A stretch of 22,068 nt of DNA from an uncultured Nitrososphaeraceae archaeon (GTDB taxonomy: Archaea; Thermoproteota; Nitrososphaeria; Nitrososphaerales; Nitrososphaeraceae), in assembly GCA_963765895.1 (NCBI GenBank), contig CAVXZB010000026.1:1-22068 (forward strand), read 5' to 3'. Position 1 is the stretch's first letter. Each line of letters begins with the position of its first letter. The position numbers and the translations under genes were made by a program. Shown here piece by piece: positions 44 through 22,068 of this stretch. The notes below the pieces were generated by a model, which saw only the letters and a list, made by a program, of their open reading frames with translations, did no database searches and was not told the DNA's origin.

Positions 44-69
44 TATAGATTCAGATAGTAATAGTAATC

Positions 70-1347
70 ATGGCCAACCATTCATCGTCGTTACCAACCC
101 AGCAGAGCATCAAGTCGCTGATTGAGAATAGCGAAGCAGTTTCCAAATACATCAAAAATGTCAGTATAATGAGCAAAGCAACAGCATATGCCTATAGCAG
201 AAGATTAGCGTCCTTCGAGAATTTTCTATCAATCGTATTTGGTGCATTAACCGTAGATAAACTCATTAGAAGAATTAAAGAAGGTGATCAGGATGTTTTT
301 GATGTTTTAAATGAATATAGTTCATACTTGAGCAATACTGGCATTTCAGTTGATACAATGAAACAGCGCATTATAACTGTCAAAAATTTTCTGGAATATC
401 ACGATGTAGATATTAGTCCGAAGGAAGTTTGAACTAAAGGTAAAACTACCGAAATCACTTAGAAAAAATAAAGAAGCACTATCTAAGGAAGATGTTACCG
501 ACATATTAAACGCCTGCTCAGATATTAGACTAAAAACATATGTAATGAGAGCCAGCTTCGATGGGAATGCGAGCACAGGAGGCTCTATCTCTCCGTATCA
601 AGGATTTTGATTCAGCAACTGTTCCAGTACCTATGAGATTTTCTGTAAGAGGTGAATATACTAAAACAAGGACAGATAGAACTGCATTTTTAACTAACGA
701 AATGGCACAGCAACTAAAGTTGTGGATAGACTATAAATATCGAACAAGAAGGGTATCTCATAATGATCGACATAATACAACATCAAAAAATAAAACAGTA
801 ACAGAATATAGAACACCCATCAAAGATGGTTCTGACCTAATGTTTGCGGTCTACCAAAACAAGGCCATTACGAAGACTCTTTCACTGTATCAGGATTTAG
901 TTAAATCTTTTGCAAAAACCTTGGATAGAATGGGAAAAGGTGCTAGAGAGGATGGTAACGAAAGGCGAAGACAGATAACACTGCATTCATTCAGAAGGTT
1001 TGTTAAAACTACTATATCCGACCTAGGTTATGCTGATTACTCTGAATATTTTATAGGACATTCAGGTTCTACATACTGGCGCAAGAAGGATTCGGGAAAA
1101 AGCCGAAATATTTCGCAAGATTGAGCCTTATCTGACATTTCTAAATGTCCATCAGTCAGAACGACAGGGTGCCGATATACAGACGAAGGTAGAAGAATTG
1201 GAAGAATTAAATCAGTCACTAAGACAGCATGATAAGGTAAAAGATGATGCTATAGGCCAACTATCAGATCAACTTGTATCTTTATCAGTGAGGTTGCAGG
1301 AGATCGAGAGGAGGCAGGTTGCTGGCGCGCGCGAGATTATGCTGTGA
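70..1347 (+). pseudogene. Tyrosine recombinase/integrase, frameshifted about three times (near 420, 555 and 1095)
   Basis: ORFs 70-432 and 561-1124 join via a KVKLPKSLRKNKEALSKEDV segment. Catalytic motifs are present: GMRAQE (R), KTR (K), HSFRR (HxxR), IGH and TYW (Y). A C-terminal coiled-coil tail (KIEPYLTFL...QLSDQL...EIML) ends at TGA 1345-1347. Confidence 0.9.
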
Positions 1348-4737: not shown

Positions 4738-4884
4738 ATGGCATTGAAGCGGTCAAAAAAGAACTGGCACCACATACAAGAAAAAGGTTCTGTCCGATTT
4801 CCTTTGGATAAGCCAATCACATATGAGCTTGTGAAAAAGATTATCAGATATATAGCGAGGGAAATTTTAGGAGAGGGGAAATAA
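4738..4884 (+). pseudogene. C-terminal fragment of a DUF1801/YdhG-like protein
   Basis: KKELAP...KGSVRFPLDKPITYELVKKIIRY matches the typical DUF1801 C-terminus. No recognisable N-terminal part. Confidence 0.6.
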
Positions 4885-5553: not shown

Positions 5554-5811
5554 AATAAGTCCTGCAACTACATATATCTATGCGAATACACGCCAAGATG
5601 TTAGAGCCACCCTGGCTCACTACAAGCAACTGGTACCATAGGCAGCAGGGCAGTTTCTGACATGTAATATTAATGCAGATTAGCCGTTCATAAACTTCCA
5701 ATACAGTTTTTTTAGACTGCTCTACTGGAAATGTTGTCATGATAAGGACACTCCCTCTACTTGCAGTTCTTCAGCCTATAGAAATCACTACCTACCTACA
5801 GAATGTAACAA

Positions 5812-6009
5812 TTGCCCAAAACTAAAGAGAAGGAACTAACGGTAAAGGAGGTTAAAGATATGATATACAAAGCAATTCAGAAGAAGCAAAAGTCGGTAGA
5901 CCAGGAAAAGTTCAACATGCGAATCGTTGAGGAAAATCTAGCAGAGGTAGAAGCCATGCAACAAATATATGCAATGATATTGGACGAAGAACATCGAAGA
6001 AAGAGATAA
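5812..6009 (+). CDS. Small charged helical hypothetical protein (65 aa)
   Basis: Intact K/E-rich ORF with a coiled-coil-like pattern. Confidence 0.5.
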   Translation: MPKTKEKELTVKEVKDMIYKAIQKKQKSVDQEKFNMRIVEENLAEVEAMQQIYAMILDEEHRRKR

Positions 6010-6502
6010 ATCATTTCCGGAACAGACAAACTAATTTAGAATTCCGATTAATTGTCAAAATTGACTATTATTTACACATACCAAGACCAAGCGATTTTTT
6101 ATCTCAATCAACTAAGTTACAAATGGTAGTATCTTGCCGAATCGAAACGTTCAAACATCATCTCAATCGGTGTCTGCTGATTGGTAAAAGCCCCATGTAT
6201 GCCGATTCAGTAGAGTCTTTACCGTCCTAATTGACGCACACTTGAGGAGACGATAAACCGAATATGAGCGACGTCCTCATTTCTTCTTTAACTCCTTCGA
6301 GCACCAGGGATAGTACTTGAATGGTTCTAGCGACGCTATAGGTCTATCATATTGACTATCACGAATGTACCAACCGTCTTTTGTTATAGAATGATATGCG
6401 TCTTCACCGGCTTTGAAGTAACAAAAGTCGTCGTAATCTACCGCCTTCTCAAACTCTATATTATTATCCTAACTTTCCTATTTCTTTTTTGGTGTGGTAG
6501 GC

Positions 6503-6773
6503 GCGCGCCTCTAGACAAATGTACATAAATTTTTTGTCTTGACCCAGAGGCACAGATCTATACATCTGATCCGTCTTTTTTAGAAGTATTTATAATCTGG
6601 CACGCCGCATATCTGTATTGAATGCCAGCTTTTCCGGTATGATTTTGCTGTACTTCATATGAATCCGACATTGTCCAATTTATTATAATTTGGATATCAA
6701 CAGAACTAATAAGCTGACTCAAATCTGCTAACTGCTACTATCTATAGATATTATCAATTTGATGGGTTGATAT
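6503..6773. repeat. Conserved non-coding element, copy A, left part
   Basis: Colinear with 15286-15557 through the blocks GCGCGCCTC, TTTATAAyCTGGCAC, GCTTTTCC, TTGTCC and TGCTACTATCTATAGATAT (19/19), at near-identical offsets. Confidence 0.85.
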
Positions 6774-6780
6774 GGCTATA

Positions 6781-6870
6781 GTTAAAGCTACAGATGGCTC
6801 CTCAATGACTTCAAATTACTCATGGTCATTTACTACAGTTGATACCAATCTATCATCTAAGATTAACTAG
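6781..6870 (+). pseudogene. Orphan C-terminal tail of an Ig-like (Big_5/SbsA-type) domain
   Basis: Translates as VKATDGSSMTSNYSWSFTTVDTNLSSKIN*. YSWSFTT resembles the terminal strand of this domain. Confidence 0.5.
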
Positions 6871-7052
6871 AGGAATCTATTCGTCCTGACGTAGTTAGAA
6901 CCAAAATCTAGTTGCATTAAATTACGCCACCTATCAAACCAGTTAAACAAGACTGTACTGTTTAAAAGTTGAAATAGTAGATTTTGAATGAAACTTCAGC
7001 ATGATATCCTACCCTGAGAGAATAAACGATTACACTTCGAGGTGAATCTATA

Positions 7053-8050
7053 ATGGAGGATCAGAGTCTTCAAGTTTCAAGTCTTCCGCCAATACGAGAA
7101 CGCGTTGGACTCATTGTACATGGTTCTAACGCGGCGATTGCGGTCAAAGCTATTGTTACAGCAGAAGCTGCCGGAGTGCGACAGATATGGATGGCCCAAC
7201 CACCTGTTTTGCCAGATGTATTAACGATGTTTCACTGCAGCAACAAAAACGTCTACGGTACGCCTGGGAACCTCGATTACACCAACCTATCCACGTCATC
7301 CCTTGGTCCTGGCTCAGCAGGTTCTAGCTTTATACGATCTTGCACCTGGTCGATTGCGTCTTGGAATAGGCCCCAGTCACCGCTTTATTATAGAAGATAT
7401 TTATGGTCTGCAACAGAAAACGCCATTAGCCCATCTGCGCGAATATCTGAAAGTACTGCGTGCTGCACTCTGGCAGGGAAAGGTGGATCATCATGGACAC
7501 TTCTATAACGTTAAAGCCACATTACCACGCACGTCGCAGATTCCGATACTTATTTCAACGCTAGGAATATCGGCATTTCAATTCGCTGGACAAATAGCTG
7601 ATGGAGCCCTTACATGGGTATGTCCTGTTCCGTATCTGCTTAATACTGGAATTCCAGCTTTACGTACCATCAGCAGCTGCAGTTGGACGATCTCCGCCTC
7701 CATTGGTGGCATATGTACCGGTAGCAGTTACCGAAGATCGGCATGCTGTTCTAGCCGCAGGACACCAAATGCTTGACTTTTATGCTAAGATCCCTTTCTA
7801 TGCTGCCATGTTCTCTAATGCAGGTTTTTCATTGACATCAGACCAGACGGTACCTGATGCTCTTGTAGATAGCTTGGTTATTTCTGGAAATGAATCAATA
7901 GTGGCTGCTCGGCTTACCGAACTTCTGGCTCCAGGTCTAGACGAGCTAATGGTATCGCTAGTGCACACAACAGGTGCAGGTGATGATGGGGGTGATGGTG
8001 ATGATGATGATGAGCAGACACGACTCATACATTTGATCGGTCGGTTATAA
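7053..8050 (+). CDS. LLM-class (luciferase-like) flavin/F420-dependent oxidoreductase, two frameshifts
   Basis: Motifs AEAAGVRQIWM, PRHPLVLAQQ, PGRLRLGIGPSH and AGQIADG run across ORFs 7053-7508, 7303-7776 and 7601-8050. Confidence 0.88.
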
Positions 8051-8142
8051 GATTGTGAGCTCTTTCATCACAGTATAACAAGATCAACTCATTGTGGTTT
8101 TCTGTAAGGGCTAGCCCTAATCCATCGATTTGGAAAGTCGAA

Positions 8143-8194
8143 GATATTAAGTTCATCAAATCCTGATAATTTTACCTATGAATAGGATCCACTA
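8143..8194. repeat. Conserved non-coding element, copy A, right part
   Basis: GATATTAAGTTCATCA (16/16) and TACCTATsAATAGGATC match 15553-15605. Confidence 0.85.
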
Positions 8195-8653
8195 GTTATG
8201 AGTAAGTTTGGACAATATTAATAACTCTGATTTATGCGTCGCTGGATCTTTGTACTTGATGTGGTGCTCTATGGATTCCAGATTTGTGTTCTTTATTTCA
8301 GGATGCAACCTACAGTAATAGTATCCATCCTTTATAGATATAATATGACAACATGGGCTCTGGTCCAATTCATGGTCTGGTAGCGCTACGTAAGGCATAG
8401 TTGGATCATCATAAAAGAAGTTGGTTACAGAGATGACTTTGGTTGCCTCGCTGTTTGTACTTGATAACGAAGCGTGGTGTAACGGGGAACATGAACTCGC
8501 GTACCCCTCGACTTCCCCGCCAGGTTTCCAGTTTGTATCGCTAGCGAATTGAGCGTGATTTTCGCCAGAACGGGAACTCTGGAAAGTCGGGGAACCTGCC
8601 GGTACTTCTAGCCCATTAGATGATGCCACTTCATTTTCATTTTCACCTGCCAC
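8192..8653 (-). pseudogene. Probable C-terminal remnant of an element replication protein: repeat-rich linker plus Cys/His zinc-finger-like end
   Basis: A low-complexity linker overlaps GGGAAC triads and ends in YYYCRLHPEIKNTNLESIEHHIKYKDP. This layout parallels the MCM tail at 19101-19460. The assignment is an inference. Confidence 0.45.
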
Positions 8654-8746
8654 AGATAAGGCAAGTCCCCGAGTTTCCCGGTTCCCAGTTTGTGCTCAAA
8701 TTGAGCGTGAATTGGACCATTTTCAGACGGGGAACTTGCCGGGAAA
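8482..8746. repeat. GGGAAC/GTTCCC iteron-like repeat cluster
   Basis: Two units share CCAGTTTGT (8528, 8685), AATTGAGCGTGA (8547, 8699) and GGGAACT (8572, 8730). Roughly 9-bp-period triads occur at 8571-8597 and, inverted, at 8663-8688. Confidence 0.7.
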
Positions 8747-8899
8747 ATTTCTAATGGCATAGTTTTCGATTCCCCCGGTGCGAACATCTTGCTTTATCAA
8801 TATAATGCTCTTGGTATGGCTTGCTCGATTCAGGCCTCTCATAAGGTCGTTATAGAAGAGGATATCAACAAAACAGGAATTTTAGATTTTGAAAAGTGA

Positions 8900-10396
8900 C
8901 TATGTGCCAGACAATTCCCTTCTTAAACTAGCAACTATTGCTTTCATCTGTTCCTTACTCTCGTCATATCCGTCTTGAATTAGCTGTCTGACCGTAGTTT
9001 TTGAAAAGTCAAATGTCTTATTTGAAATAGTATGACTGTCGTTCTTTCGCTCCAAGCGAGCAACAAAATCAACATCTACTCTACCCTTTACTAAATCAAT
9101 ATATCTCCCATGCTTGCCCGTGGCTAAAAAAGTAGCCTTAGCTTTTCTATTCAAAATTGTTTGGAGTGCTTCTTTACTCATACCATTCTCTTCGGCTAAT
9201 TTAATTAGCTGGTCTGCGAGTGTTGCATAATCAGATATAAGAACTGCAACATATTCATCAAATTCTGTTCTATCATGGTATATGATATCGTTCTTCCTGT
9301 CAATAACGCCATCATAATCATAAGAAGGATATTCTTGTTTAATCGGATGGAGATTTATTATACCAAATTTGAGACTTGGTATATTATCTTCTAATTTTCT
9401 AACTCGCTTCCAATAATGCTTGTGAGCAAGGTAGGTCTGTCTTAGAGGTGTATTAGCTAATAGTCCACCGTCCCAGAAGATGCGTAAGTCGCTATTACTT
9501 TCATCATTTGATGAAGGCCGATTAATCTCCATGGCTCCTTTTTTCTCTTCTCGTCCTTCACCCATGGCCAGGTTTCGGGTTTCCACATTTATCCTAGTAT
9601 AATCGTAATTAACTGGAACTGAGCAGCTGGCCAAAACGAAATCGGACTTTATGCCATCATCGTATCTTATAACGTGCTCAAATGCCTCTTTCTCCTGATT
9701 CTCATTCTGATTCTTCGCTGAATCTATAAATTTAACTCTACCATATCTACCGTATTCTGACTTTCTTGTTCCATCCTCTTTTTCATAGCTATCGAAAACC
9801 ACAGGAGTAGCCTCTTGCACATCCACGGCAACTAGCAAGAGTCTGGGTTCATTATTCTCGAAGCTTGTGGAAATAGGAAACTTGGCAAACTTTTCCAAGC
9901 TTTCTTTTAATGGTCTGTTGTCATAGACATACCACGTATTTGAAGGATCAAAAAATCTATTGTCTGGCAAAGGTGTCTTTGGTATAAACACATGGGGAAC
10001 TCCTTTAAAAATAAATTCCTTAGTGCTAAAATATCTTCTAGCAGATTCTCCTGAAGCAATTCGTCTATCTAATCTACGCCAAGAATCCCAATAATTTGTA
10101 AAGTATGGTATGTTTTCAACAGACGACTGAGTAGACAGATATTCCCAAAACTCGACAAGCCTTTCGCCTGATCCTTCCCATGTTTTATTTTCCTTTACAT
10201 AGCTTACTAGTAAAGGAGCATTTATTGCGCCTATTGACGTTCCGGATACGATATGAAATATTGGCTCGTTTCCTCTGTCTACTGTTCTAAAGTATGCTGA
10301 AAGTTCTTCATTAATGGCTTTATAGGCACCCGCTTCATATGCACCAAGCGAACCGCCTCCTTGAAATATTAATGCTCTGTTGATACTGGAATTCAT
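8900..10396 (-). CDS. Patatin-like phospholipase (498 aa, intact)
   Basis: Oxyanion motif QGGGSLGAY, nucleophile GTSIG and catalytic WDGG. Confidence 0.93.
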   Translation of the reverse strand: MNSSINRALIFQGGGSLGAYEAGAYKAINEELSAYFRTVDRGNEPIFHIVSGTSIGAINAPLLVSYVKENKTWEGSGERLVEFWEYLSTQSSVENIPYFTNYWDSWRRLDRRIASGESARRYFSTKEFIFKGVPHVFIPKTPLPDNRFFDPSNTWYVYDNRPLKESLEKFAKFPISTSFENNEPRLLLVAVDVQEATPVVFDSYEKEDGTRKSEYGRYGRVKFIDSAKNQNENQEKEAFEHVIRYDDGIKSDFVLASCSVPVNYDYTRINVETRNLAMGEGREEKKGAMEINRPSSNDESNSDLRIFWDGGLLANTPLRQTYLAHKHYWKRVRKLEDNIPSLKFGIINLHPIKQEYPSYDYDGVIDRKNDIIYHDRTEFDEYVAVLISDYATLADQLIKLAEENGMSKEALQTILNRKAKATFLATGKHGRYIDLVKGRVDVDFVARLERKNDSHTISNKTFDFSKTTVRQLIQDGYDESKEQMKAIVASLRRELSGT

Positions 10397-10418
10397 AAAA
10401 TCTTATTCACATCATCTG

Positions 10419-10432
10419 GTATATTTATTATT
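10419..10432 (-). promoter_or_regulatory. Putative TATA box for patatin 1
   Basis: Minus-strand AATAATAAATATA about 25-35 nt upstream of the ATG at 10396. Confidence 0.35.
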
Positions 10433-11091
10433 GTAAGGAAGCGGCACTGCATTGTTAATAGCTTGAATATAACGGATATCAATTGTCTTATCAAGGATTT
10501 AGGAATACCTGCGGAAATAGTATCTCTATATTTCAATATTTGATACTTCCGAGCATTTACTCAACTATTTAGTACAATTCATCTTAGTAATGTCTAAGAA
10601 GAACTCGTGAATGGTCCCGCCGAGTCTAACACTCAACGATGATGAAAGTTTGAAAGGGGGAAGCATCGGAATCAGACGATATTTCAGTAGAAATGGGATA
10701 TCCATTCAAAGTAACAACGAAGAGTGATATAGAAACGGCAGCAATCCTGAACGGGCATCCTCCTGGGGCAGTTGGTCACTACAGCATGATGCCGCTTATA
10801 GTATCAGGGCAATCAAAGCGCTGACAAGGCATATCTATGAATTCACTGAGGAATGCATGAGTCAGGGAGGAACCACGAAGATATTTGATGTTGATGATAC
10901 TGAGGTATTACTAGACAGTCTGCTTAAGAAATATTATATAAATTAGTAAGGAAAATACCCAAAACTTATAATCAGACCATAAAGTTTCAGTAGAGGGCTT
11001 ATTGTGGGCAGGTGTTCCTATGTGTGGCCCCCAATTCTTCGATAAGTAGCTGGCTCTTTTAGCTTTTTGGTGTACTCGCAAAAATTAGGCC

Positions 11092-11296
11092 GTCAGAGAT
11101 GTCAGGGTATCCATAGTACTATATTGGTTTTCCATATTATGAATACGTGCTATTCCTTATAGAAATTAATTAATTTTGTTACATAGAATTGAATATGTAC
11201 TATGGTTACTATGGATACCCTGACGGATAGAATATTACTAGTGGTCTGAGCGTGAAAATTCCATGAGAATAACTAGCAAATCTAATCCGTCAGGGT
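11092..11296. repeat. Inverted iteron-like triads around an AT-rich core (origin-like)
   Basis: Perfect 18-bp inverted repeat at 11101-11118 and 11207-11224, with an AT-rich core (ATAGAAATTAATTAATTTT). ATCCGTCAGGGT at 11285-11296 is the reverse complement of 11217-11228. Confidence 0.75.
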
Positions 11297-11637
11297 TGGT
11301 TTTCTATACATCAACAATGGCTATTCCATAATGACGGCGATATGTGTTCTATCCATGGTTACGGTAATCTTGAATATAGATAAAAAAATCTAGTCCATGA
11401 CACGAACATGGGAAGACCGCTCTTTGACTGGCTCCTGGTTCGCCTCGTCTTGAATCACATCCCAGTGATCGACCAGGATCCCGTCCTTGGCATTTCTAGT
11501 TCCATGGTGGCTGGATGATTGTAGAAAAGAATACAATATAGAGATTGCTTAGAATTCATACGCTTTGGATATGCACATAATGGGCAGTTTTAAGTCCATA
11601 GTATTTTTAAGCGATATCGGCCAGATACCTCTGAAAA

Positions 11638-11871
11638 ATGAATGCTGAGGAAGCCAAGGCATTTCTGAAGGATAGAGGAATACCGACTATGAATTATCCT
11701 CGCGGTTACCTACTAAAGGTATCCCGAAGGGAAGGCAGTCCATCGCGCCGTATAGAGATGGATGAATTGGATACGATCCTAACATTAGGCAAAGTTAAAC
11801 TGATTGCAGTTGAGGACACTGTGGGACATATCCTTATCGAAGTTGAAAGGAGGGACCTAATCCAAGACTAA
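11638..11871 (+). CDS. Small hypothetical protein (77 aa)
   Basis: Intact ORF with protein-like composition and TTTTTAAG about 30 nt upstream. Confidence 0.6.
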   Translation: MNAEEAKAFLKDRGIPTMNYPRGYLLKVSRREGSPSRRIEMDELDTILTLGKVKLIAVEDTVGHILIEVERRDLIQD

Positions 11872-12021
11872 TGCGAAATAAGCAACTTTAGTTACTATGG
11901 TAAAACATGGATAGTCTAATATTGTCTAAACACTCATCTATCTGGTTCTCTTCTAACGTAAAGGAATAATTTGGATACTACTGCTCGTCGATATTGTTGG
12001 CAATGACGGCGAGTGTACTTG

Positions 12022-12810
12022 TTACTCCTTTGCTATAGTTGTAATAGGGTGTATTTCTGCCCATTCACCATGTTCCTTATCTAATACATAGGATCCAGTA
12101 ACTTGAATATGGCTACCTACTGGTGGAATATCAATGTCCTGATGGAAATTCTGACAAGCAGAAATTGCAGTCGCTTGAGTTACTTTTCCTATACAAATAG
12201 GCTCTAGGACTAGATCTCCAAATTGGTTTTCTTGATTAGCCTGGTTTACTAGATGAGAATATGGAGGATCAAGTTTTAATCGTATATGCAAATCACCATC
12301 TCGTTCAGACCTGATGCTATCGATACTGCCAGTGACGGTTATGCATTTATCAACTATTTCCAATCTGCTTGGATTATATACATGATTCCAAAGTAAGTCA
12401 TCACATTTTCCTGGTGTTGATTCGGACGCTGTTACAACTGATGGTGACGATGGTATAGAGGCTGTGGCATCTGATGACGAGAATATATTGCTAGTTATAT
12501 CTTTGCCATTGTTGGAAGGAATACCGCTTAGTTGGTCCTCATTATCATTATTGTTGCCATCATTACTATTGTTATCGGCGACTCTCTCACAATCTCCATC
12601 TGGACTACGATGAAAACCATTTGGACATCTAGATAGCTTTCCTTCATGAGATACTACCCATTCACAATCGCCACTCGGACTTTTGTGATAACCATTTGGA
12701 CATCTTGCCTCAGCTACTTGAAGATAAAAAACATAAGGAATAGTAATAAGAACAATGACTAAAGACGTCATCAAAAAAGAGATTATTATATACGCTCTCA
12801 TGATTGTCAT
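12022..12810 (-). CDS. Secreted protein with two RCPNGxHxSPxGDCE repeats and a C-terminal DGDLH...EIHP domain
   Basis: N-terminal hydrophobic signal, 15-aa Cys repeats at 12586-12630 and 12661-12705, an Asn/Ser linker and a beta-rich C-terminal domain. Confidence 0.85.
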   Translation of the reverse strand: MTIMRAYIIISFLMTSLVIVLITIPYVFYLQVAEARCPNGYHKSPSGDCEWVVSHEGKLSRCPNGFHRSPDGDCERVADNNSNDGNNNDNEDQLSGIPSNNGKDITSNIFSSSDATASIPSSPSVVTASESTPGKCDDLLWNHVYNPSRLEIVDKCITVTGSIDSIRSERDGDLHIRLKLDPPYSHLVNQANQENQFGDLVLEPICIGKVTQATAISACQNFHQDIDIPPVGSHIQVTGSYVLDKEHGEWAEIHPITTIAKE

Positions 12811-12830
12811 ATATTTACTCTATCCTATCT

Positions 12831-13025
12831 TCACTTTTTTACCTTTTGCCAAGCATATTTAATTTCATCAGGCACGAATTCTAACAATATTTTATCTGCT
12901 CTTTCATGTGCATCTGGAAGTTCCTTATTATTTGCTAGTTCATCTAAATCTTTAATCAAACGGCTGACAAAATCATCAGATAACTCAATTATAGGTTCAG
13001 TATTCTTATGTAAAGAGTATGTCAT
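12831..13025 (-). CDS. Small helical hypothetical protein (64 aa)
   Basis: Intact ORF ending 20 nt upstream of the co-oriented 12022-12810 gene. Confidence 0.55.
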   Translation of the reverse strand: MTYSLHKNTEPIIELSDDFVSRLIKDLDELANNKELPDAHERADKILLEFVPDEIKYAWQKVKK

Positions 13026-13340
13026 TTGATTCTGCTATTTGTTAATCAGATTTGGTATATTAAAGCTGATTGAGTATAGAAAATAATCGCTGAACAAGAT
13101 TACTTGATAACCAACTTCAGTGATCGCTACTATTCAAGACATATGATTAGACGTTAATACTTGCGCCTACCTATAGCAAGGCGTCCTCGCCGTCTTCTCT
13201 TCGGTTAGACCTAAGTGCTAAGCCTGACCAAATTGAGATCACGTTCATGAAGCAGCACATAAGTATATTTCAATGAATATACAAACTCATTCGCCTCTCC
13301 CCTTGCGATCTATTATTAAAGAGAATGTAAACTATTCGAG

Positions 13341-13644
13341 ATGATAATGGAAGTGTCCCAAAGATGAACAAAATGAAAATGGCAATGTCCATATCTTAGC
13401 TAAAGAGATCGAAACATGGAATGGCTTTACAGATGCTCTAAGGAAAGAAAATGCACTTCTATTTAATAAGATGCTTTCTGAATGTGGACAAAATAAAGAC
13501 TATATTAGAACGGTTAGCTCCAAAGGTGAACCCCATTCAGCAGAATCATTATTCATGCTCTTAGTATTGCAGCAGCAAAAGATGATAAATGAATTGATTG
13601 TTAAAGTGTCCGAATGTAAAAGGTGGCAAAAGGAGAAAAAATAA
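13341..13644 (+). CDS. Small helical protein missed by the ORF track (frameshift near the start)
   Basis: Open frame 13348-13644 reads ILAKEIETWNGFTDALRKENALLFNKMLSEC...SAESLFMLLVLQQQKMINELI. The ATG/GTG starts at 13341-13353 are one base out of frame. It resembles a small family I recall from Nitrososphaeraceae. Confidence 0.65.
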
Positions 13645-13749
13645 TTTTTGTTGGTTCAAATCTCTGGACTGTATTGACTTAACGTTAGGTTTAAGACTTT
13701 AAGTAAATTCTATTACAAGATCTATATGTCACCACGATAATGGGGGCAT

Positions 13750-14710
13750 TTAGCTCCGAACCACCCTTGAGGTAGGGTGGATCTCAGCATGACCGCCTTC
13801 GCGCACATCAATTATGTATGCACCTGTTACCGTCAAGTGGTCTCCCACTTTAGGAAGATTAAATACCGGTCCATTATAGCCTTTACAAGATCCTATTTTG
13901 AAGGGTTCAACTGTGGTTAAATTCATTGGCTTTTGACAGATCAATTCTACCCATATCCCTCCTTTCATTTTGTCATTGAAATTTCCTACCGTAACCATAT
14001 TGCTATATGGTTTATCCAATGTTAAAGCCATAACTGCATCTCCATCGGCTGGGAAAATGGTACCACAGATACATTTCCTGATACTGTGACACATGGGTTG
14101 AGCATTATGAACCTTGGTGGCCCGGGCAGTGGCATAAAGTTCCATAGTGAAGGATTACAATTATTTGCAGTAGTGTTTGTTTTCTGAGCTGTAGGGGAAT
14201 TTGCAAATAACTCCTGGACCTGTTGGGCCTGTGATTTTAGTCTCAGCTGTGGCGTGAACTTTTGATCAAAATATTTAGTAAAGTTTGCTGCGTATACCAA
14301 GTTTTTTGTAAAGGGATGTTTTGACAACTGATCTCTTTGAGTTTCGTTCATAGGATGCTTTAGGAGTTCATTTAGACTGAAGGCCATAGCATAAGGGAGC
14401 AGGACGGTGTACCAAATTATATAGTGGAACTTTATAACACGATCTATCCACTCCATCCAAAAGACTCTTAAATTGTACAGTTGGACTTGCATATACAAAC
14501 GAATTATTATTAGAGGAAGTAACCGTTTCATTTACTAAAGAAGCAGATGGAAGAGATGAATTTGATAATGGTAGCGAAGATAGTGTTTCTGTAGTATTAG
14601 TAGACGCATTTGCTATACTATTTGAGTTGCTGATTACTGTTACTGCTACAATTGGAACTGAGAGTAGCGGCTATCAAGAGAGTTTTGACAAGTAAATTAA
14701 TTTTGTCCAT
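13750..14710 (-). pseudogene. Secreted paralog of 12022-12810, about three frameshifts
   Basis: Signal-like start MDKINLLVKTLLIAA at 14710 and a Ser/Thr/Asn linker. Shared motifs are CNPSLWN, PCVTVSG, ADGD, VELIC, PKVGDHLTVTGAYIID and EIHP. Confidence 0.75.
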
Positions 14711-14927
14711 TATTTGTATACACTACTAATTGCCTTAAAATAGGTATTATGTAAGAAAAATCTGAATATTTATTCATTATATTTTACCTATTTTTCACCA
14801 AAAACAGTATTAGGCCTACTACGAAAGGGGACCATTTCTAAACCGACACTCGGCTATCTTAGGTGGGCAGGAGGCTAAATTTGCGTATAAAAAACTAATT
14901 ATACATACTCTAGATTTTAGTGCGTAT

Positions 14928-15262
14928 ATGAATCGCAGATTCTTTCTCTTCGCCATACTGGTTATCACCGCGGTTATGGTGTTGCTTAGTTCTACGATCC
15001 TTTTTATCTCCCCATCTACGAGGGGGAGGCCAGGCTCTAGTAGCTATTGCTTCTCCTGATATACCTGTTAGTCATCATGACCGCGTCTATACTGCGGATC
15101 AATTTTCAAAAACTATCTATTAGATCCTGCTGGCGATGGTAACGATATTCTGACTGGAGGCGCAGGACGCGACTAAGTTTTAATTGTGGACCTGGGACAG
15201 ACACAATAACAGGCTTTCAGCCAGGTGTTGATACAAAGGGAGCAAATTGCGAATACCCATGA
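14928..15262 (+). pseudogene. Deleted or chimeric remnant: signal peptide + YncE/YVTN propeller start + RTX-like Ca-binding C-terminus
   Basis: Reads MNRRFFLFAILVITAVMVLL, then PDIPVSHHDRVYTADQFSKTI, then GDGNDILTGGAGRD* and CGPGTDTITGFQPGVDTKGANCEYP*. Confidence 0.6.
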
Positions 15263-15285
15263 TACCCAGTTTTACGTGATATTTG

Positions 15286-15605
15286 GCGCGCCTCATCATA
15301 TCAGCAAACACAAATTTTATCACCATCCTGGGACGTCAGTCTACACATAGGACACAGTATTTTTTGATGATCTTTATAACCTGGCACCACTCCTATCTTA
15401 TTATAACGCTTTTCCTGGATGATTAGGCTAGATGGGTTAAAAATCTGATGTTGTCCGATGTGTTAAACTTATTGCATAGTAACGGAATTAGTCTGTTGAT
15501 TTATATCAACTAATTGCTACTATCTATAGATATCACCAATTAATAGTTGACTGATATTAAGTTCATCACCAGTCTTGTAGTTCTACCTATCAATAGGATC
15601 AGCTA
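15286..15605. repeat. Conserved non-coding element, copy B (uninterrupted)
   Basis: Aligns to 6503-6773 joined directly to 8143-8194. Confidence 0.85.
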
Positions 15606-15700
15606 CGATGACATATGAATTAGAGGATCACACGGACTGGCGTGTCTATTACCTGAGCGATGATTACAATGTTCGTGTCATTATAATTCAATTAAGGTCA

Positions 15701-15890
15701 ATCTGACCTATCTGACCTATCTGACACTTTAGAGGCTGGAATCTTGAACCACGTACAGCCTTGATTGCATTTCAACTATCTGACCTATTTGACCTATGTG
15801 ACACTCCCCAACTTGTAATCTCGCATCGCATTGAACTATAACTGTATTGCACCCAACGACCTATCTGACATATATGACATATCTGACATC
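15701..15890 (+). repeat. Array of three (NTATCTGAC)x3 triads
   Basis: Triads at 15701-15727, 15776-15804 and 15861-15890, with periods of 77 and 85 bp. Confidence 0.9.
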
Positions 15891-16089
15891 ATACCCTGAA
15901 TAGGATTCATTTTGATTGACTATGAGAGAAATTACAGTCAGTTCCGATATGAAACAGTCTTTTGAGATATGAATCGAGCCAGAGAGTTGAATATTTGACT
16001 CTGACTCTTATTTTCGGACTCATGTTATACAGAATGTGTTGAAGCTGGTTTAACGTATTAGAAAAGATACCTTTGTCTTGATTATAATA

Positions 16090-17487
16090 TTAACATCCTT
16101 CGAGTATCTTCAATGCATCTTTTTCTCCTTGTTCAATTAGCATCTTTATGGAATCATGAGTAAAGTCTATAGATTTGCTGGAATAATCTGCTTCCTTACC
16201 GGTAATAGCATCTACGTCAGATGCACGTTCTATTCTTATTACCTTTTTTAATGTGAATTTGCCTTTTATTAAATCTTTGTATTTTTCCCGCCTAACTTCT
16301 CGTGTTTTACTTTTTTCTTCAGCAATCGTTAGAAACTGCTCAAACCCATTTTGAAATACCATACCCTCATTTGTATTAGTAAATTTATGTATTAATTGTA
16401 TGGCGCCAAGCAATGTTTATTCCAAATCATTGTAGTCTGTTACAATATCTGTTACCATTTCATCATAGCTAGAATTCCTGTCTGAATGTTATATCATTAT
16501 ATCTATCATTAACCCCGTCATGGTCGTTAGGAATAATATTTCTTTTAGAAGGATTCACGTTTACTACATACACATCTAAATCGGGAATTTTAGCTTTGAC
16601 ATTACCTGCTACTCTGGTCCAATAATCCCTATGAGCCTGCAAAAGTTCTCTAAATGGCGTATTATTTAAAAAACCTCCATCATAGAAACTTCTTCCACCT
16701 ATTATTCGGAACTTATAGAAGAGCGGTATCGTACCCTAGCCATAATATGATCTATAGTAATACCATCACCTTCATACACTCCTTTTTCAAGATAGTTCTT
16801 CCGTATGATAACTATCAAATGCCACTGTCTTCCCGTCAGATACATCTACACTAATGACAAGAAACCTAGGCCGCTCTACGTTCCCAGGCGGGTTATTCCA
16901 ATTTTTCAGTATTTTCATCTTTTGAATATCGCTCTATAGTATGTTGTAATGGATCGCTAATATACCAAGTCCATTGTACCGGATCGTTATTATTATCCCT
17001 ATCGCCAAATTTCACATCACGTTCTGGTTCTGGATTTTAAAAACACACATTTGGTGTTCCCTTAGCGAAGTAATATTTTACTGAGTAATATCTTCTTGCA
17101 GCCTTGATGAAGCATTAAAGTTTTTTTGTTTTTTTGCGTCATCCAACCATTTGTTAATATCTGGAGTGGACGAGAGACCATTTTTCTCATCCATCCAAAA
17201 ATCTTCAAGCACTCCTACTGCTTCTTTCCAGCGTTTACGTCTGTTGACTACATTGCTTACAAGCACTGCGGCGTTCATTGCACCCATGGAACTGCCTGCA
17301 ATAATATCAAATAACGGCCCATTTTCCGTGTCGTTTCCACCACTTTCAAGAAGCTTTTTACACAGCACTTTCCAGTCACACCTACTTCATACGCACCCAA
17401 TGCTCCCCCTCCTTGGAGTACCAATGCCCTCTGTCTATCAGGAATGATATGGTCCTTAGATTTCTTTATAGAATTTTCCTCTGTCAT
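16090..17487 (-). pseudogene. Second patatin-like phospholipase, multiply frameshifted
   Basis: QGGGALGAY, GSSMG, FYDGGFLNNTP, PRFLVISVD and NDRYND motifs, plus a SKSIDFT C-terminus, parallel patatin 1. Confidence 0.88.
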
Positions 17488-17647
17488 TTAATATTCCTTT
17501 AATAAAATTGCTCTTCTTATTTTATAGTACCGTGATTCTATGTGTTATTAAAATCGCTGCTTATATTTCATTATTAGATCGAATGACAACTGTAAGCTCA
17601 GTATTGATGAAAAATGAGTAGGAGGGCTGAGGCTCCACTATCGGATG

Positions 17648-17891
17648 CATCCGACATATATGACGTTTCTGGCCCCCCAGCATCTGATAATCTCTCATCA
17701 CATAGAACTATTGGAATGTAACTATCTGACGTATCTGACGTATCTGACATCAGTATGGCCGACATTCCTTAATCTTATGCAGCTCTCACCTCTATCTGAC
17801 GTATCTGACAGTTCCGTAATAGATCTTCTAAATGTACATTGAACATAAAATAACGTCCTTGCTATCTGACCGATCTGACTGATATGACATC
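17648..17891 (+). repeat. Array of four (NTATCTGAC) triad/dyad units
   Basis: Units at 17648-17673 (degenerate), 17722-17751, 17792-17810 (two clear 9-mers) and 17862-17891. Confidence 0.9.
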
Positions 17892-18133
17892 AAGATACAC
17901 AATCTCACAAATTATAATAACCGCCATGTATATGGGGTTAAATAGGAAAACCCCTACTGAGAAGTGTGGAATCAAGGTTGATGAAAAAAATATGGGTAAC
18001 TGTGATTCAAAACACTAAAAAAATGGATCAGAAGAATCGTAGTCTTGATTCGAAGTCACATTTACCATAAAGATAACCGTCATCTATCTGTACGACTAAG
18101 TCAGTCGCCTTTGATTTGAGCTCTAGAAAGCGT

Positions 18134-18969
18134 TTAATTAAGTCTGTTTCCTTCATCACTAAGTTCGTTTAGTACTTTTATTATATCACGTTCTTGGACG
18201 TCCAGTTTTTTCTTTAGGCATTCCATGCTTTGTTGATCTCCTCTACCAATTTCTTTCATGTCAGAAGCCCTGTACAGTTGATAATGTGAGTTCAATTTTC
18301 GTACCGCTAATTGGTCATCAGGTCTGCTGAATTTCTCGATATAGTAATGAATGATATGGTCTAAAACGAAGCGTGGTGTAACATCGGTTGCGAATTGATG
18401 CTCAGATATGCCTTCTAACCTACAGTCATTTTCTATGTAAACTGTATTTCTAATTCTTTGTTTCAACCCGTTAATAAAATCGGCAACTTCCTGATTGTGC
18501 TTTGATTCACTTTCTTCGATATCAGTTATTATATCATCGATTTCTTTAGAAGATATCTTCAGATGTGATCGGAGCCGATTGAAGTATTTCGACCTTAGTT
18601 TCTCCGAAATTTGTGTATATAGAGGTTTGGTTGTTTTAGGAAACGTGTTTAGTTGTGAATACAGTTCCGCTTCATATTGAAGCCAGTGATCAAGAACATC
18701 TTCTCTTAATGTCTCATAGTGTTGTAATAATGCTTTTTTCGATTTCTATTTTTCTCTAAAATGGTTTCAATAAAAAATGATCTATAGCGACTCCAATTAT
18801 GCCGAATGAAATTATCGGATTCGATATTATAATCCAAGCGTGATCTAGATATTCCTGCGGAATCAGAACCATCATGTAATCGATTGAAGTATTTAAACCA
18901 ATTGTAGAATATTGAATCTAGTGAGCGAATACAAATAGAAAACAATGATACAAAACTGTACATAATCAT
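18134..18969 (-). pseudogene. Hypothetical membrane-anchored helical protein, frameshifted
   Basis: Alternative frames give a TM segment AWIIISNPIISFGIIGVAID. A further segment, EDVLDHWLQYEAEL...VADFINGL, reads in frame into ORF 18134-18466. Confidence 0.55.
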
Positions 18970-19100
18970 GAAGCTAGCAAGCCGTATTTCATACTTTGTA
19001 CGATGACGATTAATACTTTTTTTAAATTACTTAAATAGACTGTAAGGTAACAGGACCACTTTAACAATCTTTTCATAAATGGAGATAGAATCATGACTGG

Positions 19101-21811
19101 TTATTTTGCATCTCCACTACACAGATGTCCTCTCATGTGATGTACATCTCCTTTTTGTCTGCAATTTTCGCAAGCCCAAGTATCTGAGTGTCCAAGTCTA
19201 TAGATATTACACGATTCTTGTTCCTTGATAATCTGCTGGTCTCCGAATGTGTCAGATATGTCAGATATGTCAGATAGCTGGGGATTATTTTGTTCAGTCA
19301 TGAATGCGGGCAACTTTTTCATGTTAACCGATATCGTGTCAGATACGTCAGATGCGTCAGTTGTGGACTGTGTCACATTATTTTGACTGGCCCTGATAGT
19401 TGTGTCAGATATGTCAGATTTGTCAGATGACACTTCCTTATTGATGTATTGTATTACCATTGGCTTGGCATTTACTAATTTATTTTTCCGTGGTTTAGCA
19501 CGATGTCAGTTACAGCTCTTAGCTTGTGATTATGTTCAATATTCCACTTCTCGCCCAAGTATTCAGGTGATACGTCGATTTTCCTTGCATACCCTAGCAC
19601 AAAGTCCTGTGTGATAGTTATGCCAATGCTAGTATGTTTTAAGATGTCCACGAATGCATTATAAAGGCCGGCATTGCGCGGGCTTTGGCGATTGTTGCTA
19701 CAACTTTACCGTATTGTGATATCATTAGGCCGATCCAATTCATTGTCTGAGTTGCGATCTCGTCTGTGACTATGTTACTGAGGTTAAGCTCTTGCTTGCG
19801 CTTCTGCGATCCTAAATATTGAATCGTATGCCCTAGTGGTTACTGCTCCCTGAATTTTGCCCTTCTCCCAAAAATTGTTTAGTCTAGCTCCTACATCGTC
19901 TGTCACTACAGGCTCGAGGGTTTTTGTATAAACAAGTAATTTCCCCAGGAAATTATAGTTATGTGATGGACGGTTTCTAACCCTAGTTTTTTTGTACTTG
20001 TGAATTTATTGATTTCATTTTCAGATTGAAAATCCATGAATTTATAAACTTGATCACATCTATCAAGAAGAGGTTTGAGTATTGGTATCTCGTCTTTAGA
20101 TATATTATAGCCCTTTGCTCCAAGTTTGATTAAGTGGATTTGCTGTTGCTATGATGGTTGTGGGTGCGTCGATCTCGAAATGGGTGCCATATTTATCTAC
20201 GTGTATCTTCCTTCCTCAGCAATATCTAGCAAAAATTGTTGATCGGTAGGATTCATAGCGCCTATCTCATTTATTGCACAAACGGCGCCCTGGCAGGTAC
20301 AACTACTCCATACCTACATACCTAGACTATCATTTTCTTTATCGACAATAGCAATGAGGCTTTTGCCACTAGCATGTTGAGTCTGTTACATATCTGGAAT
20401 TAGGTAATAGACGAGTAGCCTCTTTTCGCGGACGTACTTTTTGCTGTCCCTGGTTCGCCTACGAGTAGTGTATTTATTCTTCCCCTTCTTCCATTATCAT
20501 TCCCATGATCCAGACCTTGCTCCAACTATAGATTCTAGTAGTCCCAATTTTTTGTCGTTATGACCTATTACATTGGGTGCAACCATTGCAACAACCCTAT
20601 CTATATATCGCATTGGTTTGATTCTTTTTGTAGCTCCCTGGATAACGCTCTATGGTTTCAAGTTCACTTTGGTAAGCCTTTTCACATATTGCCTTGTGTC
20701 TCTTAAAAATTTCAATATCTTTAGAAGTGATTACTATCTTTTCTCTGTGTTTCGAATCAAGTCTACTATGATGTAAAACACTGACAAGTTTCTTGCCATT
20801 GCTATTGATTACGCTTTGTGTCTTTGGCTGGACATGTAGGTCACCTGTTATGTCTACATCTTTGCCGGCGAATGCATGACTCCATGATTCATCGTATAAC
20901 ACTACCTCAAGTGAATCATAATTTTCATTATGGTTATTATCAGCATCAATGACTTGAATAGTCTTGGCTGTAAATGGTACTCGTGGCTAACAGTAAATGC
21001 GGTGCTGTGACATTCGAAGTACTCCCATTTCGGGACTTGAAAATTGTCCAGGTGTCTTGGTGGGAGCATACGAGGTGGTATATAATTCTGGCTACCGACT
21101 TGGTTACAATTAGGGCATTCCCACTTTGAATTAGATATTACCCAGTATTGAGTTGAAAGTGAGTCTCTATGATTCCAGTAACCGTTATCTGCCCAGACTT
21201 AATCTTCTTTGCTTCAGAAAACAATAAGGGACAATGGGACCGACTGTTAAGACCATCTTATACATCCAACCTCACTCTGAGATTTCGAGTGATACTGCGG
21301 TGAGTGTATTTTGGTCCGGCAATATTTTCAAAAATTTTCTGCACGACTGCTAATTTTAGCGCTTGTTGCGACTCTTCTGGACCTAATGCCTTAAGTTCGG
21401 CTAATATTCTTGTAGTTAGATTGGATATGTTGATAACAAATTCGACTGGTGGCTTTGCTATAGGAATCCATTTTTTAAGGCGCAGAGCCTGGTTATATGG
21501 GATACTTGTAAATGCTAACTTGCTTACCATTATGAGCAACTAAAAGCCTTTAAGTGAAGCAATTTGCAGAAACATCTCCTCCACTAGATAATTCCAAGGA
21601 CCAATATTCGCGATATTCATTTCCTAATTCCTTCGGATTTTGCTTTGGATTGTGGCACATTCAGACGGATTGAAACCAGTCTGCAGAATTCTTCTTCAGA
21701 TAGTCCAAGCAACTGATTTGTAATTGATTTGTTACTAAGGCTAGAATTAGTTTCCTTGTCTTGAAAACGTTTATTTTCATCTTCTGATAATGTACCTCTA
21801 GCGATCATCAT
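19101..21811 (-). pseudogene. mcm: MCM-family replicative helicase (mobile-element type), many frameshifts, with a C-terminal SDx-repeat linker and CxxC zinc finger
   Basis: Motifs: WECPNC zinc knuckle, AGKDVDITGDL OB-fold strand, APNVIGHNDKKLGLL, Walker A RGRINTLLVGEPGTAKS (core at 20436-20459), Walker B-like AVCAINEI, sensor 1 IIATANP, Arg finger LLDRCD and sensor 2 TTRAYDSIFRIAEAQAR. Whether the 5' fragments at 21258-21811 belong to this gene is less certain. Confidence 0.9.
19249..19430 (-). repeat. Three (NTATCTGAC)x3 triads inside the MCM 3' coding region
   Basis: Triads at 19249-19277, 19336-19363 and 19402-19430 encode LSDISDISDT, TTDASDVSDT and SSDKSDISDT. Confidence 0.92.
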
Positions 21812-22068
21812 CCTTGTTCTTCACCAGTTCATGGAAGTTGATATGCTTCGGGCGGTGTTGGCCTCGGGTTGCCCAACCTGTTCCAACACCAGCCCTTTTT
21901 GACTTTTGTGAATGGTGTTCAGCCTTTGACCGGTTTATCGTGGCCTCATATTGCATAGTGTGGCGCACGTTCTTGTCGTCAGCTTTTATGAGGGCCCTTT
22001 TTAGTCCGGCGATTTGTCTTTGATAGCGGGTGCAGTTTGAACAGCTACCTTTAGATGATGCCTTATTC
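21798..22068 (-). CDS. Partial hypothetical basic protein with CxxC, upstream of and overlapping the putative mcm start
   Basis: Open frame from the window edge (NKASSKGSCSNCTRYQRQIAGLKRAL...KNKDDDR*) to TAG at 21798-21800, overlapping the ATG at 21811. Confidence 0.5.
   Translation of the reverse strand, partial: NKASSKGSCSNCTRYQRQIAGLKRALIKADDKNVRHTMQYEATINRSKAEHHSQKSKRAGVGTGWATRGQHRPKHINFHELVKNKDDDR

Follow-up and report, generated by a model that had tools for sequence, protein, structure and literature searches.

In phage lambda the iterons of the origin, ori-lambda, lie within the coding sequence of the O protein, in the linker between its two domains, and the iteron plasmids P1 (incC and incA) and F (incB and incC) each carry a second, control cluster of iterons. 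To our knowledge, replication origins have hardly been defined for MCM-using archaeal mobile elements, and we know of no genetic system for ammonia-oxidising archaea (AOA). SaPI, an integrated element of Staphylococcus aureus, is described in the relevant passages of PMC9371898 as encoding a Rep protein that is a self-loading initiator-helicase with a C-terminal winged-helix domain; the iterons of its origin follow immediately downstream of the rep open reading frame in two oppositely pointing sets, and the Rep2 type is, like MCM, a member of SF6. In Thaumarchaeota, passages of PMC6563490 present NitGar-E6, NitEve-E3 and ThaMY3-E2 as cryptic integrated MCM-encoding elements, with an integrase and with MCM as the predicted replication protein; those passages mention no origin and no repeats at the end of MCM, and in the text the word 'patatin' is absent and 'iteron' occurs only in the title of a reference. 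Here we show, by sequence comparison, that short phased repeats are physically tied to the 3' ends of mobile-element MCM genes across many Nitrososphaeria, and that the repeat unit differs between elements.

The window, that is the whole stretch of 22,068 nucleotides analysed here, is a complete contig and a mosaic, decayed paralog (91-94% identity) of contig C59 of the same genome. Its features are collected in Table 1.

Table 1. Features of the window, in order of position.
Feature	Position	Strand	Remarks
Tyrosine-recombinase (integrase) fragment	558..1124	+	PF00589, 25.7 bits (27.1 with neighbours); multi-copy family
Patatin 1, patatin-like phospholipase	8900..10396	-	498 aa, intact; without flanking arrays
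Dispersed repeat copy	15132..15605		Family of dozens of copies in the genome
Free array A, three NATCTGAC triads	15700..15888	+	Non-coding, downstream of patatin 2; 9 units, 6 exact
Patatin 2 pseudogene	16093..17487	-	Frameshifts and stops; intact counterpart is a 466-aa gene on C59
Free array B	17648..17889	+	Non-coding, upstream of patatin 2; 10 units, 7 exact
Homolog of C59 ORF269	18134..18969	-	Two frame pieces, 98% and 88% aa identity to ORF269
Array C, three triads within the MCM tail	19251..19429	-	9 units, 8 exact
Mobile-element-type MCM pseudogene	19101..21811	-	Many broken frames by stop-to-stop ORFs; tblastn pieces 19104-21811

A sequence-only reading of the window had described three clusters of the triad (NATCTGAC)x3, and all three were recovered at their places, far above chance: the window contains 55 occurrences of TATCTGAC with at most one mismatch, whereas 100 dinucleotide shuffles gave 22.0 +/- 4.7 and none of them reached 55; 31 of the 55 lie in the three clusters. 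Tandem Repeats Finder returned period-9 arrays at 15701-15725, 15776-15802, 15858-15889, 17723-17748 and 17864-17888, and further ones at 19250-19276, 19338-19360 and 19403-19428. The triads of array A (15700-15725, 15777-15802 and 15862-15887; periods 77 and 85) can be aligned with the C59_A and C27_A arrays. Array B, a paralog of array A, departs from the layout first described in that it holds four clusters with periods of 75, 70 and 70: the first, at 17648, is a degenerate triad, those at 17723 and 17863 are triads, and the one at 17793 is a dyad. The two 24-nucleotide spacers singled out in the earlier reading were found at about 15817 and 17679, matching at 21 of 24 positions, and AATCT or GATCT is present some 12-25 nt past each free triad. 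The sets of array C, with periods of 87 and 66, lie at 19251, 19338 (about 2.6 units) and 19404 within the last MCM ORF piece, between the winged-helix part and a C-terminal Cys/His (zinc-ribbon-like) part, and read in frame as the S-D-x repeats SDISDISDT, DASDVSDT and SDKSDISDT; the counterpart on C59 has four triads. Within each window array the units point one way only.

The array in the MCM tail and the position of patatin 2 between the two free arrays were thus read correctly from the sequence, but both genes are pseudogenes. A single open frame with P-loop, lid and OB had to be rejected for the window MCM, whose match contains 18 stops (5 TGA, 8 TAG and 5 TAA) and whose P-loop and lid fragments fall below the cut-off; by descent the gene is an MCM, but what the window has is a pseudogene, with its winged-helix-coding piece at about 19475-19705 and its zinc-ribbon-like end at 19104-19286. 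P-loop, lid and OB are all present in the C59 MCM, split over two overlapping ORFs (412 and 345 aa), with a separate 114-aa piece. The C25 copy is frameshifted, that of C26 is riddled with stops and that of C61 is cut by the contig end. Because this genome contains no intact MCM of the window's clade, the arrays here may be relics. The window is a decayed relic, with MCM and patatin 2 as pseudogenes and with more mismatches in its triads than C59, and as a dead copy it is of lower value when taken alone. An AlphaFold2 model of the winged-helix domain (20 sequences, pLDDT 80.8) shows helices and then two strands, in keeping, as modelled, with a three-helix bundle followed by a beta-hairpin wing. 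The large majority of the 44 Foldseek matches listed are winged-helix domains, the best among them being cullin WHB, Fur, Rok, forkhead, Z-alpha and MarR, and no other fold class scores better among these 44; their probabilities reach 1.0, with weak E-values (0.034 or higher).

Genome-wide there are 13 triad clusters on six contigs, and the MCM tails that carry arrays are those of the C59, C25, C26 and C61 copies. Were the free arrays merely decayed MCM C-termini, they should align with the MCM tails outside the triads; with the triads masked, none of 18 comparisons between free arrays and MCM tails stands out. Nor do the triads share the drift of their surroundings. Among arrays A and B and the C25 array, triad cores diverge by 5-11% and spacers by 50-60%, so that cores are kept 5-10 times better, and between C59 and C27, where the adjoining patatin gene has a dS of 0.32, 6 of 119 core positions differ as against 29 of 215 non-core positions. 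Whole triad-plus-spacer units have been gained or lost among the arrays, which is the pattern of unequal homologous exchange. These alignments show the triad to be the recurring quantum of the arrays and a feature of the DNA itself, conserved far above its surroundings.

The main new result is comparative. A blind class-wide pattern scan gave 27 matches in this genome and 1-8 matches in 7 of 400 other genomes, and none with a reversed control pattern; five of the eight pattern-match loci elsewhere lie at the 3' end of a non-cellular MCM gene (G297 twice, G195, G378 and G210). When the 1.6 kb after the lid was scored, 22 of 29 mobile-element MCM loci, which are not all independent (C1, C3 and C33 are mutual copies, as are C59 and C25), had a 9-bp-phased triad (19) or an inverted phased pair (14), against 1 of 29 for the 5' controls; the other seven had no such repeats by the criterion used. 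Background windows of the genome had a phased triad in 57 of 3028 cases and an inverted pair in 52 of 3028, and the cellular MCM had neither phased triads nor inverted sets. The sets follow directly on the winged-helix domain, either still within the coding tail or shortly beyond the stop codon. At least eight unit types occur across the elements (units seen: TCTGAC, TGTGAY, TATGAC, AACTGAC, GGTGAC and CGGATGCAA), forward and inverted sets agree within each element, and two MCM families of this genome have different units, TATCTGAC and TATGTGAT. In G401 a coding triad and a non-coding inverted triad have changed together to TGTGAY. The inverted second set, which has its unit in common with the first, is usually 75-370 bp away; the sets of the relatives are compact, whereas 1.1-1.4 kb and a gene separate the arms in the window's clade. 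Inter-arm GC is below locus GC in seven of nine cases (one of them a mispicked 8-bp spacer), often by little, and the stretch separating inverted sets shows no more than a mild excess of AT. Three hallmarks of an iteron-type origin are found at these loci, namely physical linkage to an initiator or helicase gene, clustered short direct repeats at a fixed phase, here 9 bp, and a replicon-specific unit common to both arms. The predicted covariation between triad unit and winged-helix domain is weak: on a 20-taxon tree there are 11 unit changes against a shuffled mean of 13.4, and 6 of 200 shuffles were as low.

The proposal that the triads matter as DNA, as sites linked to the MCM of the element, therefore gains support at the level of sequence from the contrast of 22/29 with 1/29, the unit differences and the masked alignment. 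The architecture is like that of SaPI Rep and its ori and of lambda O and ori-lambda, and we therefore read the triads as element-specific iterons, which probably define the replication origin of an integrated MCM-carrying mobile element, and possibly its control sites. According to this model the element's MCM would recognise its own repeats and load itself there, the likeliest reader being the winged-helix domain directly preceding them, in parallel with the SaPI Rep helicases at iterons downstream of rep. The forward arm would have turned coding in the window's clade, giving Ser-Asp on either strand, probably after fusion of MCM with a downstream zinc-ribbon gene. Free array B would be the inverted arm, which a variable gene would have pushed about 1.1-1.4 kb away; in the window the homolog of ORF269, which has no Pfam family above cut-off, lies between array C and array B. 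Array A would be a duplicate of the inverted arm, with the patatin-like phospholipase gene as cargo between A and B, and the arrays would be recombination-prone and located at module junctions. A bolder extension, which we think has little chance of being correct as a whole, is that AOA mobile-element MCMs are self-loading initiator-helicases with the origin in or after their own 3' end (in one clade as dual-use DNA that encodes Ser-Asp), and that spare origin arms around a phospholipase gene turn it into a non-autonomous module that could be looped out, amplified or mobilised with MCM in trans.

A different DNA-binding protein of the element, for example of the ribbon-helix-helix type, might instead bind the arrays, making them a centromere-like partition site, or operators for patatin or its neighbours, and not an origin. 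Plasmid centromeres are typically arrays of short direct repeats, a 152-aa ORF upstream of the C59 MCM has an N-terminus that looks ribbon-helix-helix-like by eye (Pfam gave no family), the patatin start codon follows the end of array B at a distance of about 150 bp, and the C27 arrays are conserved though no MCM is nearby. However, the ORF has only weak matches elsewhere (23-32%) and none beside the C25 MCM, two of three patatin orthologs in sister genomes are without arrays, and across genera the sole constant partner of the repeats is the MCM 3' end. We consider this explanation unlikely.

It is also conceivable that array-patatin-array is a functional cassette, which excises by array-by-array recombination as a one-array circle and is then replicated or re-inserted in trans by the MCM element. 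The arrangement is present on C59, C26 and C27, and remnants of it persist on C22 and C61; on C25 a single array stands in place of the array-patatin-array of C59; and the C27 cassette is without MCM, its homology to C59 beginning exactly at the outer edge of array B. The patatin gene is under purifying selection (dN/dS 0.30, C59 versus C27), and the ortholog in G429 has an array downstream. Against this, the other end of the C27/C59 homology falls in a dispersed repeat and not at an array. The dispersed repeat family of Table 1 adjoins array A in the window, and A-type or solo arrays on C59, C27, C61, C25 and C22. No empty site was found for the C27 cassette, each free array has a single orientation as opposed to the two-armed sets of the relatives, and the orthologs in G401 and G407 have no array within 1.5 kb. 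A search for circular junctions gave no reliable one, and with the window copy dead and two of three orthologs without arrays we found no evidence for patatin 2 as a mobilisable satellite or decoy; a functional cassette of this kind seems to us quite improbable. The protein itself is a generic patatin (PF01734). Assignment to CapV, the CBASS-type phospholipase effector, was rejected at 44 bits against the NCBIfam equivalog cut-off of 200.

We think it very unlikely that a site-specific recombinase uses the arrays as target or arm sites, in an integron-like system shuffling genes between them. The genes that separate the MCM tail array from the array following it do differ (ORF269, ORF257, ORF88 and ORF167 of G406) and are unrelated except for a 43-aa stretch common to two, and integrase fragments occur in the same segment, that of the window lying at the far end of the duplicated segment. 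Yet no inverted core-type site was found within the window arrays, the arrays vary by whole triad-plus-spacer units as in unequal homologous exchange, and the link to the MCM 3' end is present also where no cassette follows. An integron attC cassette was rejected on the single unit orientation within each window array, and a CRISPR array because homologous 'spacers' are shared from copy to copy, and by arrays A and B, and one array lies inside an ORF. Least credible, and already disfavoured, is the idea that the repeats exist for acidic Ser-Asp repeats needed by the MCM linker, the free arrays being MCM-tail relics or plain minisatellites without a DNA role: the in-frame S-D-x reading of the tail triads, the x-D-x of coding versions in most relatives, the minisatellite-like variation in unit number and a long (ATCTGACTT)n run in G308 speak for it, but non-coding sets follow the stop in G297, G195, G378 and G302, G406 uses one Ser codon only per orientation (TCT-GAC and its reverse complement TCA-GAT are its only S-D codons), the residue shifts from S to C, Y and G between elements with the DNA core retained, the free arrays do not align to MCM tails, and cores outlast spacers to the extent given above.

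If the triads are indeed iterons, the recurrence of element-specific repeats at the MCM 3' end points to a candidate minimal replicon consisting of the MCM gene and its triads, and provides a setting for testing whether an archaeal MCM can locate its own origin independently of Orc1/Cdc6. On the same reading the loci would show a route by which an origin becomes absorbed into coding sequence, and origin arms would act as junctions prone to recombination, at which cargo such as patatin-like phospholipases is shuffled.

The likeness to lambda O and ori-lambda lies in candidate origin repeats inside the coding sequence of an initiator, in an interdomain linker. Unlike MCM, O is not a helicase, and the lambda iterons are 19-bp inverted-repeat units with no extra arrays around cargo. 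With P1 and F the locus would have in common at least two iteron clusters per replicon with a gene between them, and by analogy titration or handcuffing of the initiator by an additional cluster is conceivable, as in the decoy idea of the sequence-only reading; in those plasmids, however, the bracketed gene is rep and not cargo, and the initiator is a Rep protein and not a helicase. NitGar-E6, NitEve-E3 and ThaMY3-E2, as far as the passages of PMC6563490 describe them, are similar as integrated AOA elements with integrase and MCM. SaPI provides an integrated element, a helicase with a winged-helix domain, and short iterons in opposed sets at the end of the helicase gene. The helicase here differs, being an MCM of the true archaeal type that has P-loop, lid and OB domains, the candidate iterons are 9 bp long and grouped in triads where those of SaPI are 5-6 bp, and one arm in the window's clade is contained in the ORF while the other appears displaced and duplicated around a cargo gene.

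Three clusters of triads, each made of three 9-bp units, had been described from the sequence alone, two free and non-coding around patatin 2 (arrays A and B) and one in the MCM tail (array C), and both motif counts and repeat calling bear this description out (see table). Allowing at most one mismatch, the 22-kb window contains the unit TATCTGAC 55 times, compared with 22.0 +/- 4.7 times in shuffled sequence, a count that none of 100 shuffles reached, and all eight period-9 arrays called by Tandem Repeats Finder fall within these three places. The related 24-mers (21/24) and the AATCT and GATCT words after the free triads are likewise present. Translated in frame, array C reads SDISDISDT, DASDVSDT and SDKSDISDT. 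The window holds no Rfam family and no tRNA.

Features discussed in the text (C, contigs, of the source genome unless a genome is named; C26, the window; G, Nitrososphaeria genomes; L, loci of the MCM survey)
Feature	Location	Position	Strand	Remarks
Array A	window	triads start 15700, 15777, 15862	+	
Array B	window	degenerate triad 17648, triad 17723, dyad 17793, triad 17863	+	
Array C	window	triads 19251, 19338, 19404	-	inside last MCM ORF piece
Integrase fragment	window	558-1124		
Dispersed repeat	window	15132-15605; 6557-6761 plus 8142-8885		
ORF of dispersed repeat	window	8192-8653	-	153 aa
Insertion in dispersed repeat	window	6762-8141		1.4 kb; matches C27 14720-15985 (90%) and C18 (94%)
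Further multi-copy stretch	window	2007-3310		86-88% identical to C76, C18, C19
MCM-tail arrays	C59, C25, C26, C61			
Array pairs around patatin	C59, C26, C27			
Single arrays	C25, C22			
Two arrays	C61			
Blind-scan loci at MCM 3' ends	G297 (two), G195, G378, G210 (one each)			G297, genome of a different family
Inverted and forward units past MCM stop	G297:C20	L024 9374-9441; L025 9566-9632		
ATCTGACTT run	G308:C121	28825-28912		
TATGTGAT sets of second MCM family	C1, C3, C33	39110-39530; 33258-33678; 6002-6422		
Solitary TATGTGAT triad and inverted triad	C1	15387-15513		24 kb from C1 MCM
Lone TATGTGAT-type triad	C17	9538-9562		
Large proteins with MCM-type Cys/His tail	L026 (G421:C45), L027 (G405:C17), L028 (G429:C314)			

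The window is one entire contig of a 4.9-Mb source genome in 88 contigs, and it aligns with C59, a paralogous contig, at 94.4% identity over positions 1-19301 and at 91.4% over 19249-22068. Along the longer alignment there are 160 indel events and 794 substitutions, of which 59% are transitions, and the divergence is very patchy, ranging from 0.3% to 10% per kb. The sequence is therefore a patchwork of genuine changes and conversion tracts and does not reflect uniform error; a contig shaped by sequencing error is ruled out by the same spread, together with patatin 1, which is intact here and on C25 and broken on C59. In the window, MCM is split over many frames and a single match spans 18 stops; patatin 2 is broken there as well. 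On C59, patatin 2 (466 aa) and ORF269, which lies between it and MCM, are intact, and MCM consists of two ORFs (412 and 345 aa) plus a separate 114-aa upstream piece. These gene states and the integrase fragment thus mark the segment as a decaying integrase-plus-MCM integrated element, a class described for Thaumarchaeota (PMC6563490), and the array and MCM copy of the window itself is a relic. The window, C59 and C25 are paralogous segments; their uneven divergence, together with the fact that the broken genes are not the same from copy to copy, suggests repeated gene conversion among at least three copies, or mixed strains in the assembly. A further multi-copy stretch lies elsewhere in the window.

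A scan of the source genome found 13 triad clusters on six contigs. Alignment shows that the three-triad plan is common to arrays A, B and the free array of C25, the seven-base cores being 5-11% diverged and the remaining positions 50-60%. When the C59 copies are compared with those of C27, 6 of 119 core positions are changed and 29 of 215 outside the cores, with a dS of 0.32 for the adjacent patatin, and whole triad-plus-spacer units have been gained and lost between arrays. Under the alternative that the free arrays are decayed MCM tails, the two kinds of array should align over their length without excess conservation of the triads. This is rejected: once the triads had been masked, not one of 18 comparisons of free with tail arrays exceeded shuffles, while tail-tail and orthologous array pairs did, and A and B were only faintly alike. 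The free arrays thus cannot be recognised as remains of an MCM C-terminus, and the triads are the part that was kept.

Spaced triads were sought blind in 401 Nitrososphaeria genomes: the source genome gave 27 matches, only seven others gave any (1-8 each), and the reversed control pattern gave none. The matches outside the source genome form eight loci, five of them at the 3' ends of MCM genes of non-cellular type; those in G360, G222 and G308 do not. With the tail of the C59 MCM as query, relatives were detected in 28 genomes out of 81. For a wider survey, MCM ORFs were chosen by blastp and the 1.6 kb after the lid domain was scanned at 29 mobile-element loci, not all of them independent (those on C1, C3 and C33 are mutual copies, as are those on C59 and C25). 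A 9-bp-phased triad (19 loci) or a same-core inverted phased pair (14 loci) was present at 22 of the 29, compared with 1 of the 29 when an upstream stretch of 1.6 kb was scanned and with 57 and 52 of 3028 background windows of the source genome; cellular MCM had neither. The sets start directly past the conserved 'P-x-VL-x-W' end of the winged-helix-like region, either in the coding tail or at most about 170 bp past the stop. As far as sequence comparison goes, the link between triads and MCM genes is thus general across the family.

Intact MCM relatives of 680-760 aa are encoded at L024, L025, L029 and L042. Two intact MCM genes, L024 and L025, lie 47 kb apart on one contig of G297, a genome from another family, and no more than about 20 bp past each stop three to four inverted units are followed by three forward units of TATCTGAC type; the total of about six may relate to the six winged-helix domains of a hexamer. 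In G308 at least ten perfect ATCTGACTT units form a 9-bp microsatellite of the TATCTGAC-type unit, on a contig that gave no hit in the search for the MCM family.

Judged by their nucleotide patterns, the triads are a feature of the DNA and not of the protein. The unit differs by element (TCTGAC, TGTGAY, TATGAC, AACTGAC, GGTGAC, CGGATGCAA), and forward and inverted sets agree in unit within one element. Several sets are non-coding, and the encoded residue varies between S, C, Y and G across elements with the core DNA unchanged. In the G406 tail ATCTGAC and GTCAGAT alternate, both giving in-frame Ser-Asp with no other Ser codon used, and in G401 one changed base is common to a coding triad and a non-coding inverted triad. 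A second MCM family in the source genome uses TATGTGAT sets; C1 also carries a solitary triad of this kind, a 77-bp AT-rich spacer and an inverted triad, and C17 a lone triad.

In the C59 clade arrays B and A both run in the direction opposite to that of the tail array, and the gene between the tail array and B varies (ORF269, ORF257 or ORF88 in the source genome, ORF167 in G406), these ORFs being unrelated apart from one 43-aa stretch. C25 has one array at the place of the C59 array-patatin-array. On C27 the cassette stands by itself; homology with C59 starts precisely at the outer boundary of array B and ends about 250 bp beyond array A, in a dispersed repeat; no empty site for this cassette was found. 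Cassette remnants lie on C22 and C61. From this comparison and the turnover of units, the arrays therefore appear to be recombination-prone module junctions. The dispersed repeat is present in dozens of copies at 65-88% identity, the full ones carrying the 153-aa ORF, and one window copy is split by an insertion; a truncated copy adjoins the A-type or solo array at every locus examined (C26, C59, C27, C61, C25, C22). ORF269, ORF257 and the 153-aa ORF have no family in Pfam, NCBIfam or PADLOC, and the last had no usable match in the Atlas.

The sequence-only reading had also proposed that patatin 2 is an origin-flanked cassette, which could be a satellite or a decoy. Patatin is under purifying selection (dN/dS 0.24-0.30) and is of a generic type, not a recognised defence effector; the source genome has 35 patatin-family matches over many contigs, several broken, a large paralog expansion for an archaeon. 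Sister genomes supply its three closest orthologs, of which two lack any array within 1.5 kb; the third, in G429, has triads about 200 bp downstream. Nine public DNA runs matched, the best with 0.26 of words, and no RNA run did. Among the low-depth Logan contigs of four runs (depth about 2-5), no joint between arrays, as a circular form would leave, was supported. One contig of the X3 run places C59 position 7447 (A', the counterpart of A) beside 5487 (B', that of B) with seven other letters between, and was not counted because both sides are triad repeats. With arrays missing from two of the three orthologs and no supported joint, patatin 2 may be a satellite or a decoy, but that reading is unsupported. 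The exact triad occurs on 18 IMG/VR contigs, whose retrieved stretches contained no MCM or patatin relative, and a search with MCM against viral contigs found no relative.

The likely reader of the triads, on structural modelling, is the winged-helix region just before the repeats. This region is modelled as a winged helix (pLDDT 80.8), and its best fold matches are winged-helix domains, at weak E-values of 0.034 or more; when the sequence of the MCM tail was compared with PDB chains, the lid alone matched (E 0.2). Unit class clusters only weakly on a 20-taxon winged-helix tree, where it takes 11 changes; shuffled classes average 13.4, and 6 of 200 shuffles go as low. The Cys/His end past the repeats is not universal, as the MCMs of G195 and G302 stop right after the winged helix. 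The tail 'RLGHSD..AC.NC..KGD' also ends three large proteins (531-808 aa) of no Pfam family, and each of these has 9-bp repeats of its own, either ahead of the tail or past the gene.

In the mechanism that we propose, the triads would be the mobile element's own iterons, at which MCM would load itself as a helicase, and in the clade of the window one origin arm would have turned coding when MCM fused to a downstream zinc-ribbon gene. In the literature searched, repeats at the ends of thaumarchaeal MCM genes are not described, although the supplements of PMC6563490 may bear on the point; PMC2926602 mentions only that Thermococcales plasmids have iteron-like repeats upstream of their replication genes. 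On this analysis we rate the triads at MCM 3' ends as a probable new form of a known kind, the iteron origin tied to a self-loading helicase. The interest lies mainly in the family-wide pattern and in the lead that it offers to a replicon for ammonia-oxidising archaea.

The lambda origin lies inside its initiator gene O, much as repeats lie in the MCM coding tail. In SaPI, an initiator-helicase with a C-terminal winged-helix domain recognises iterons immediately downstream of rep, which are arranged as two opposed sets with an AT-rich region between them, and one of the Rep types is MCM-like (PMC9371898). The repeat sets of the MCM elements, lying past the winged helix, match this rep and iteron layout as described there; the region between their own arms is only mildly AT-rich. 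It is on these two architectural matches that we read the triads as candidate iterons of the element and MCM as its predicted self-loading helicase.
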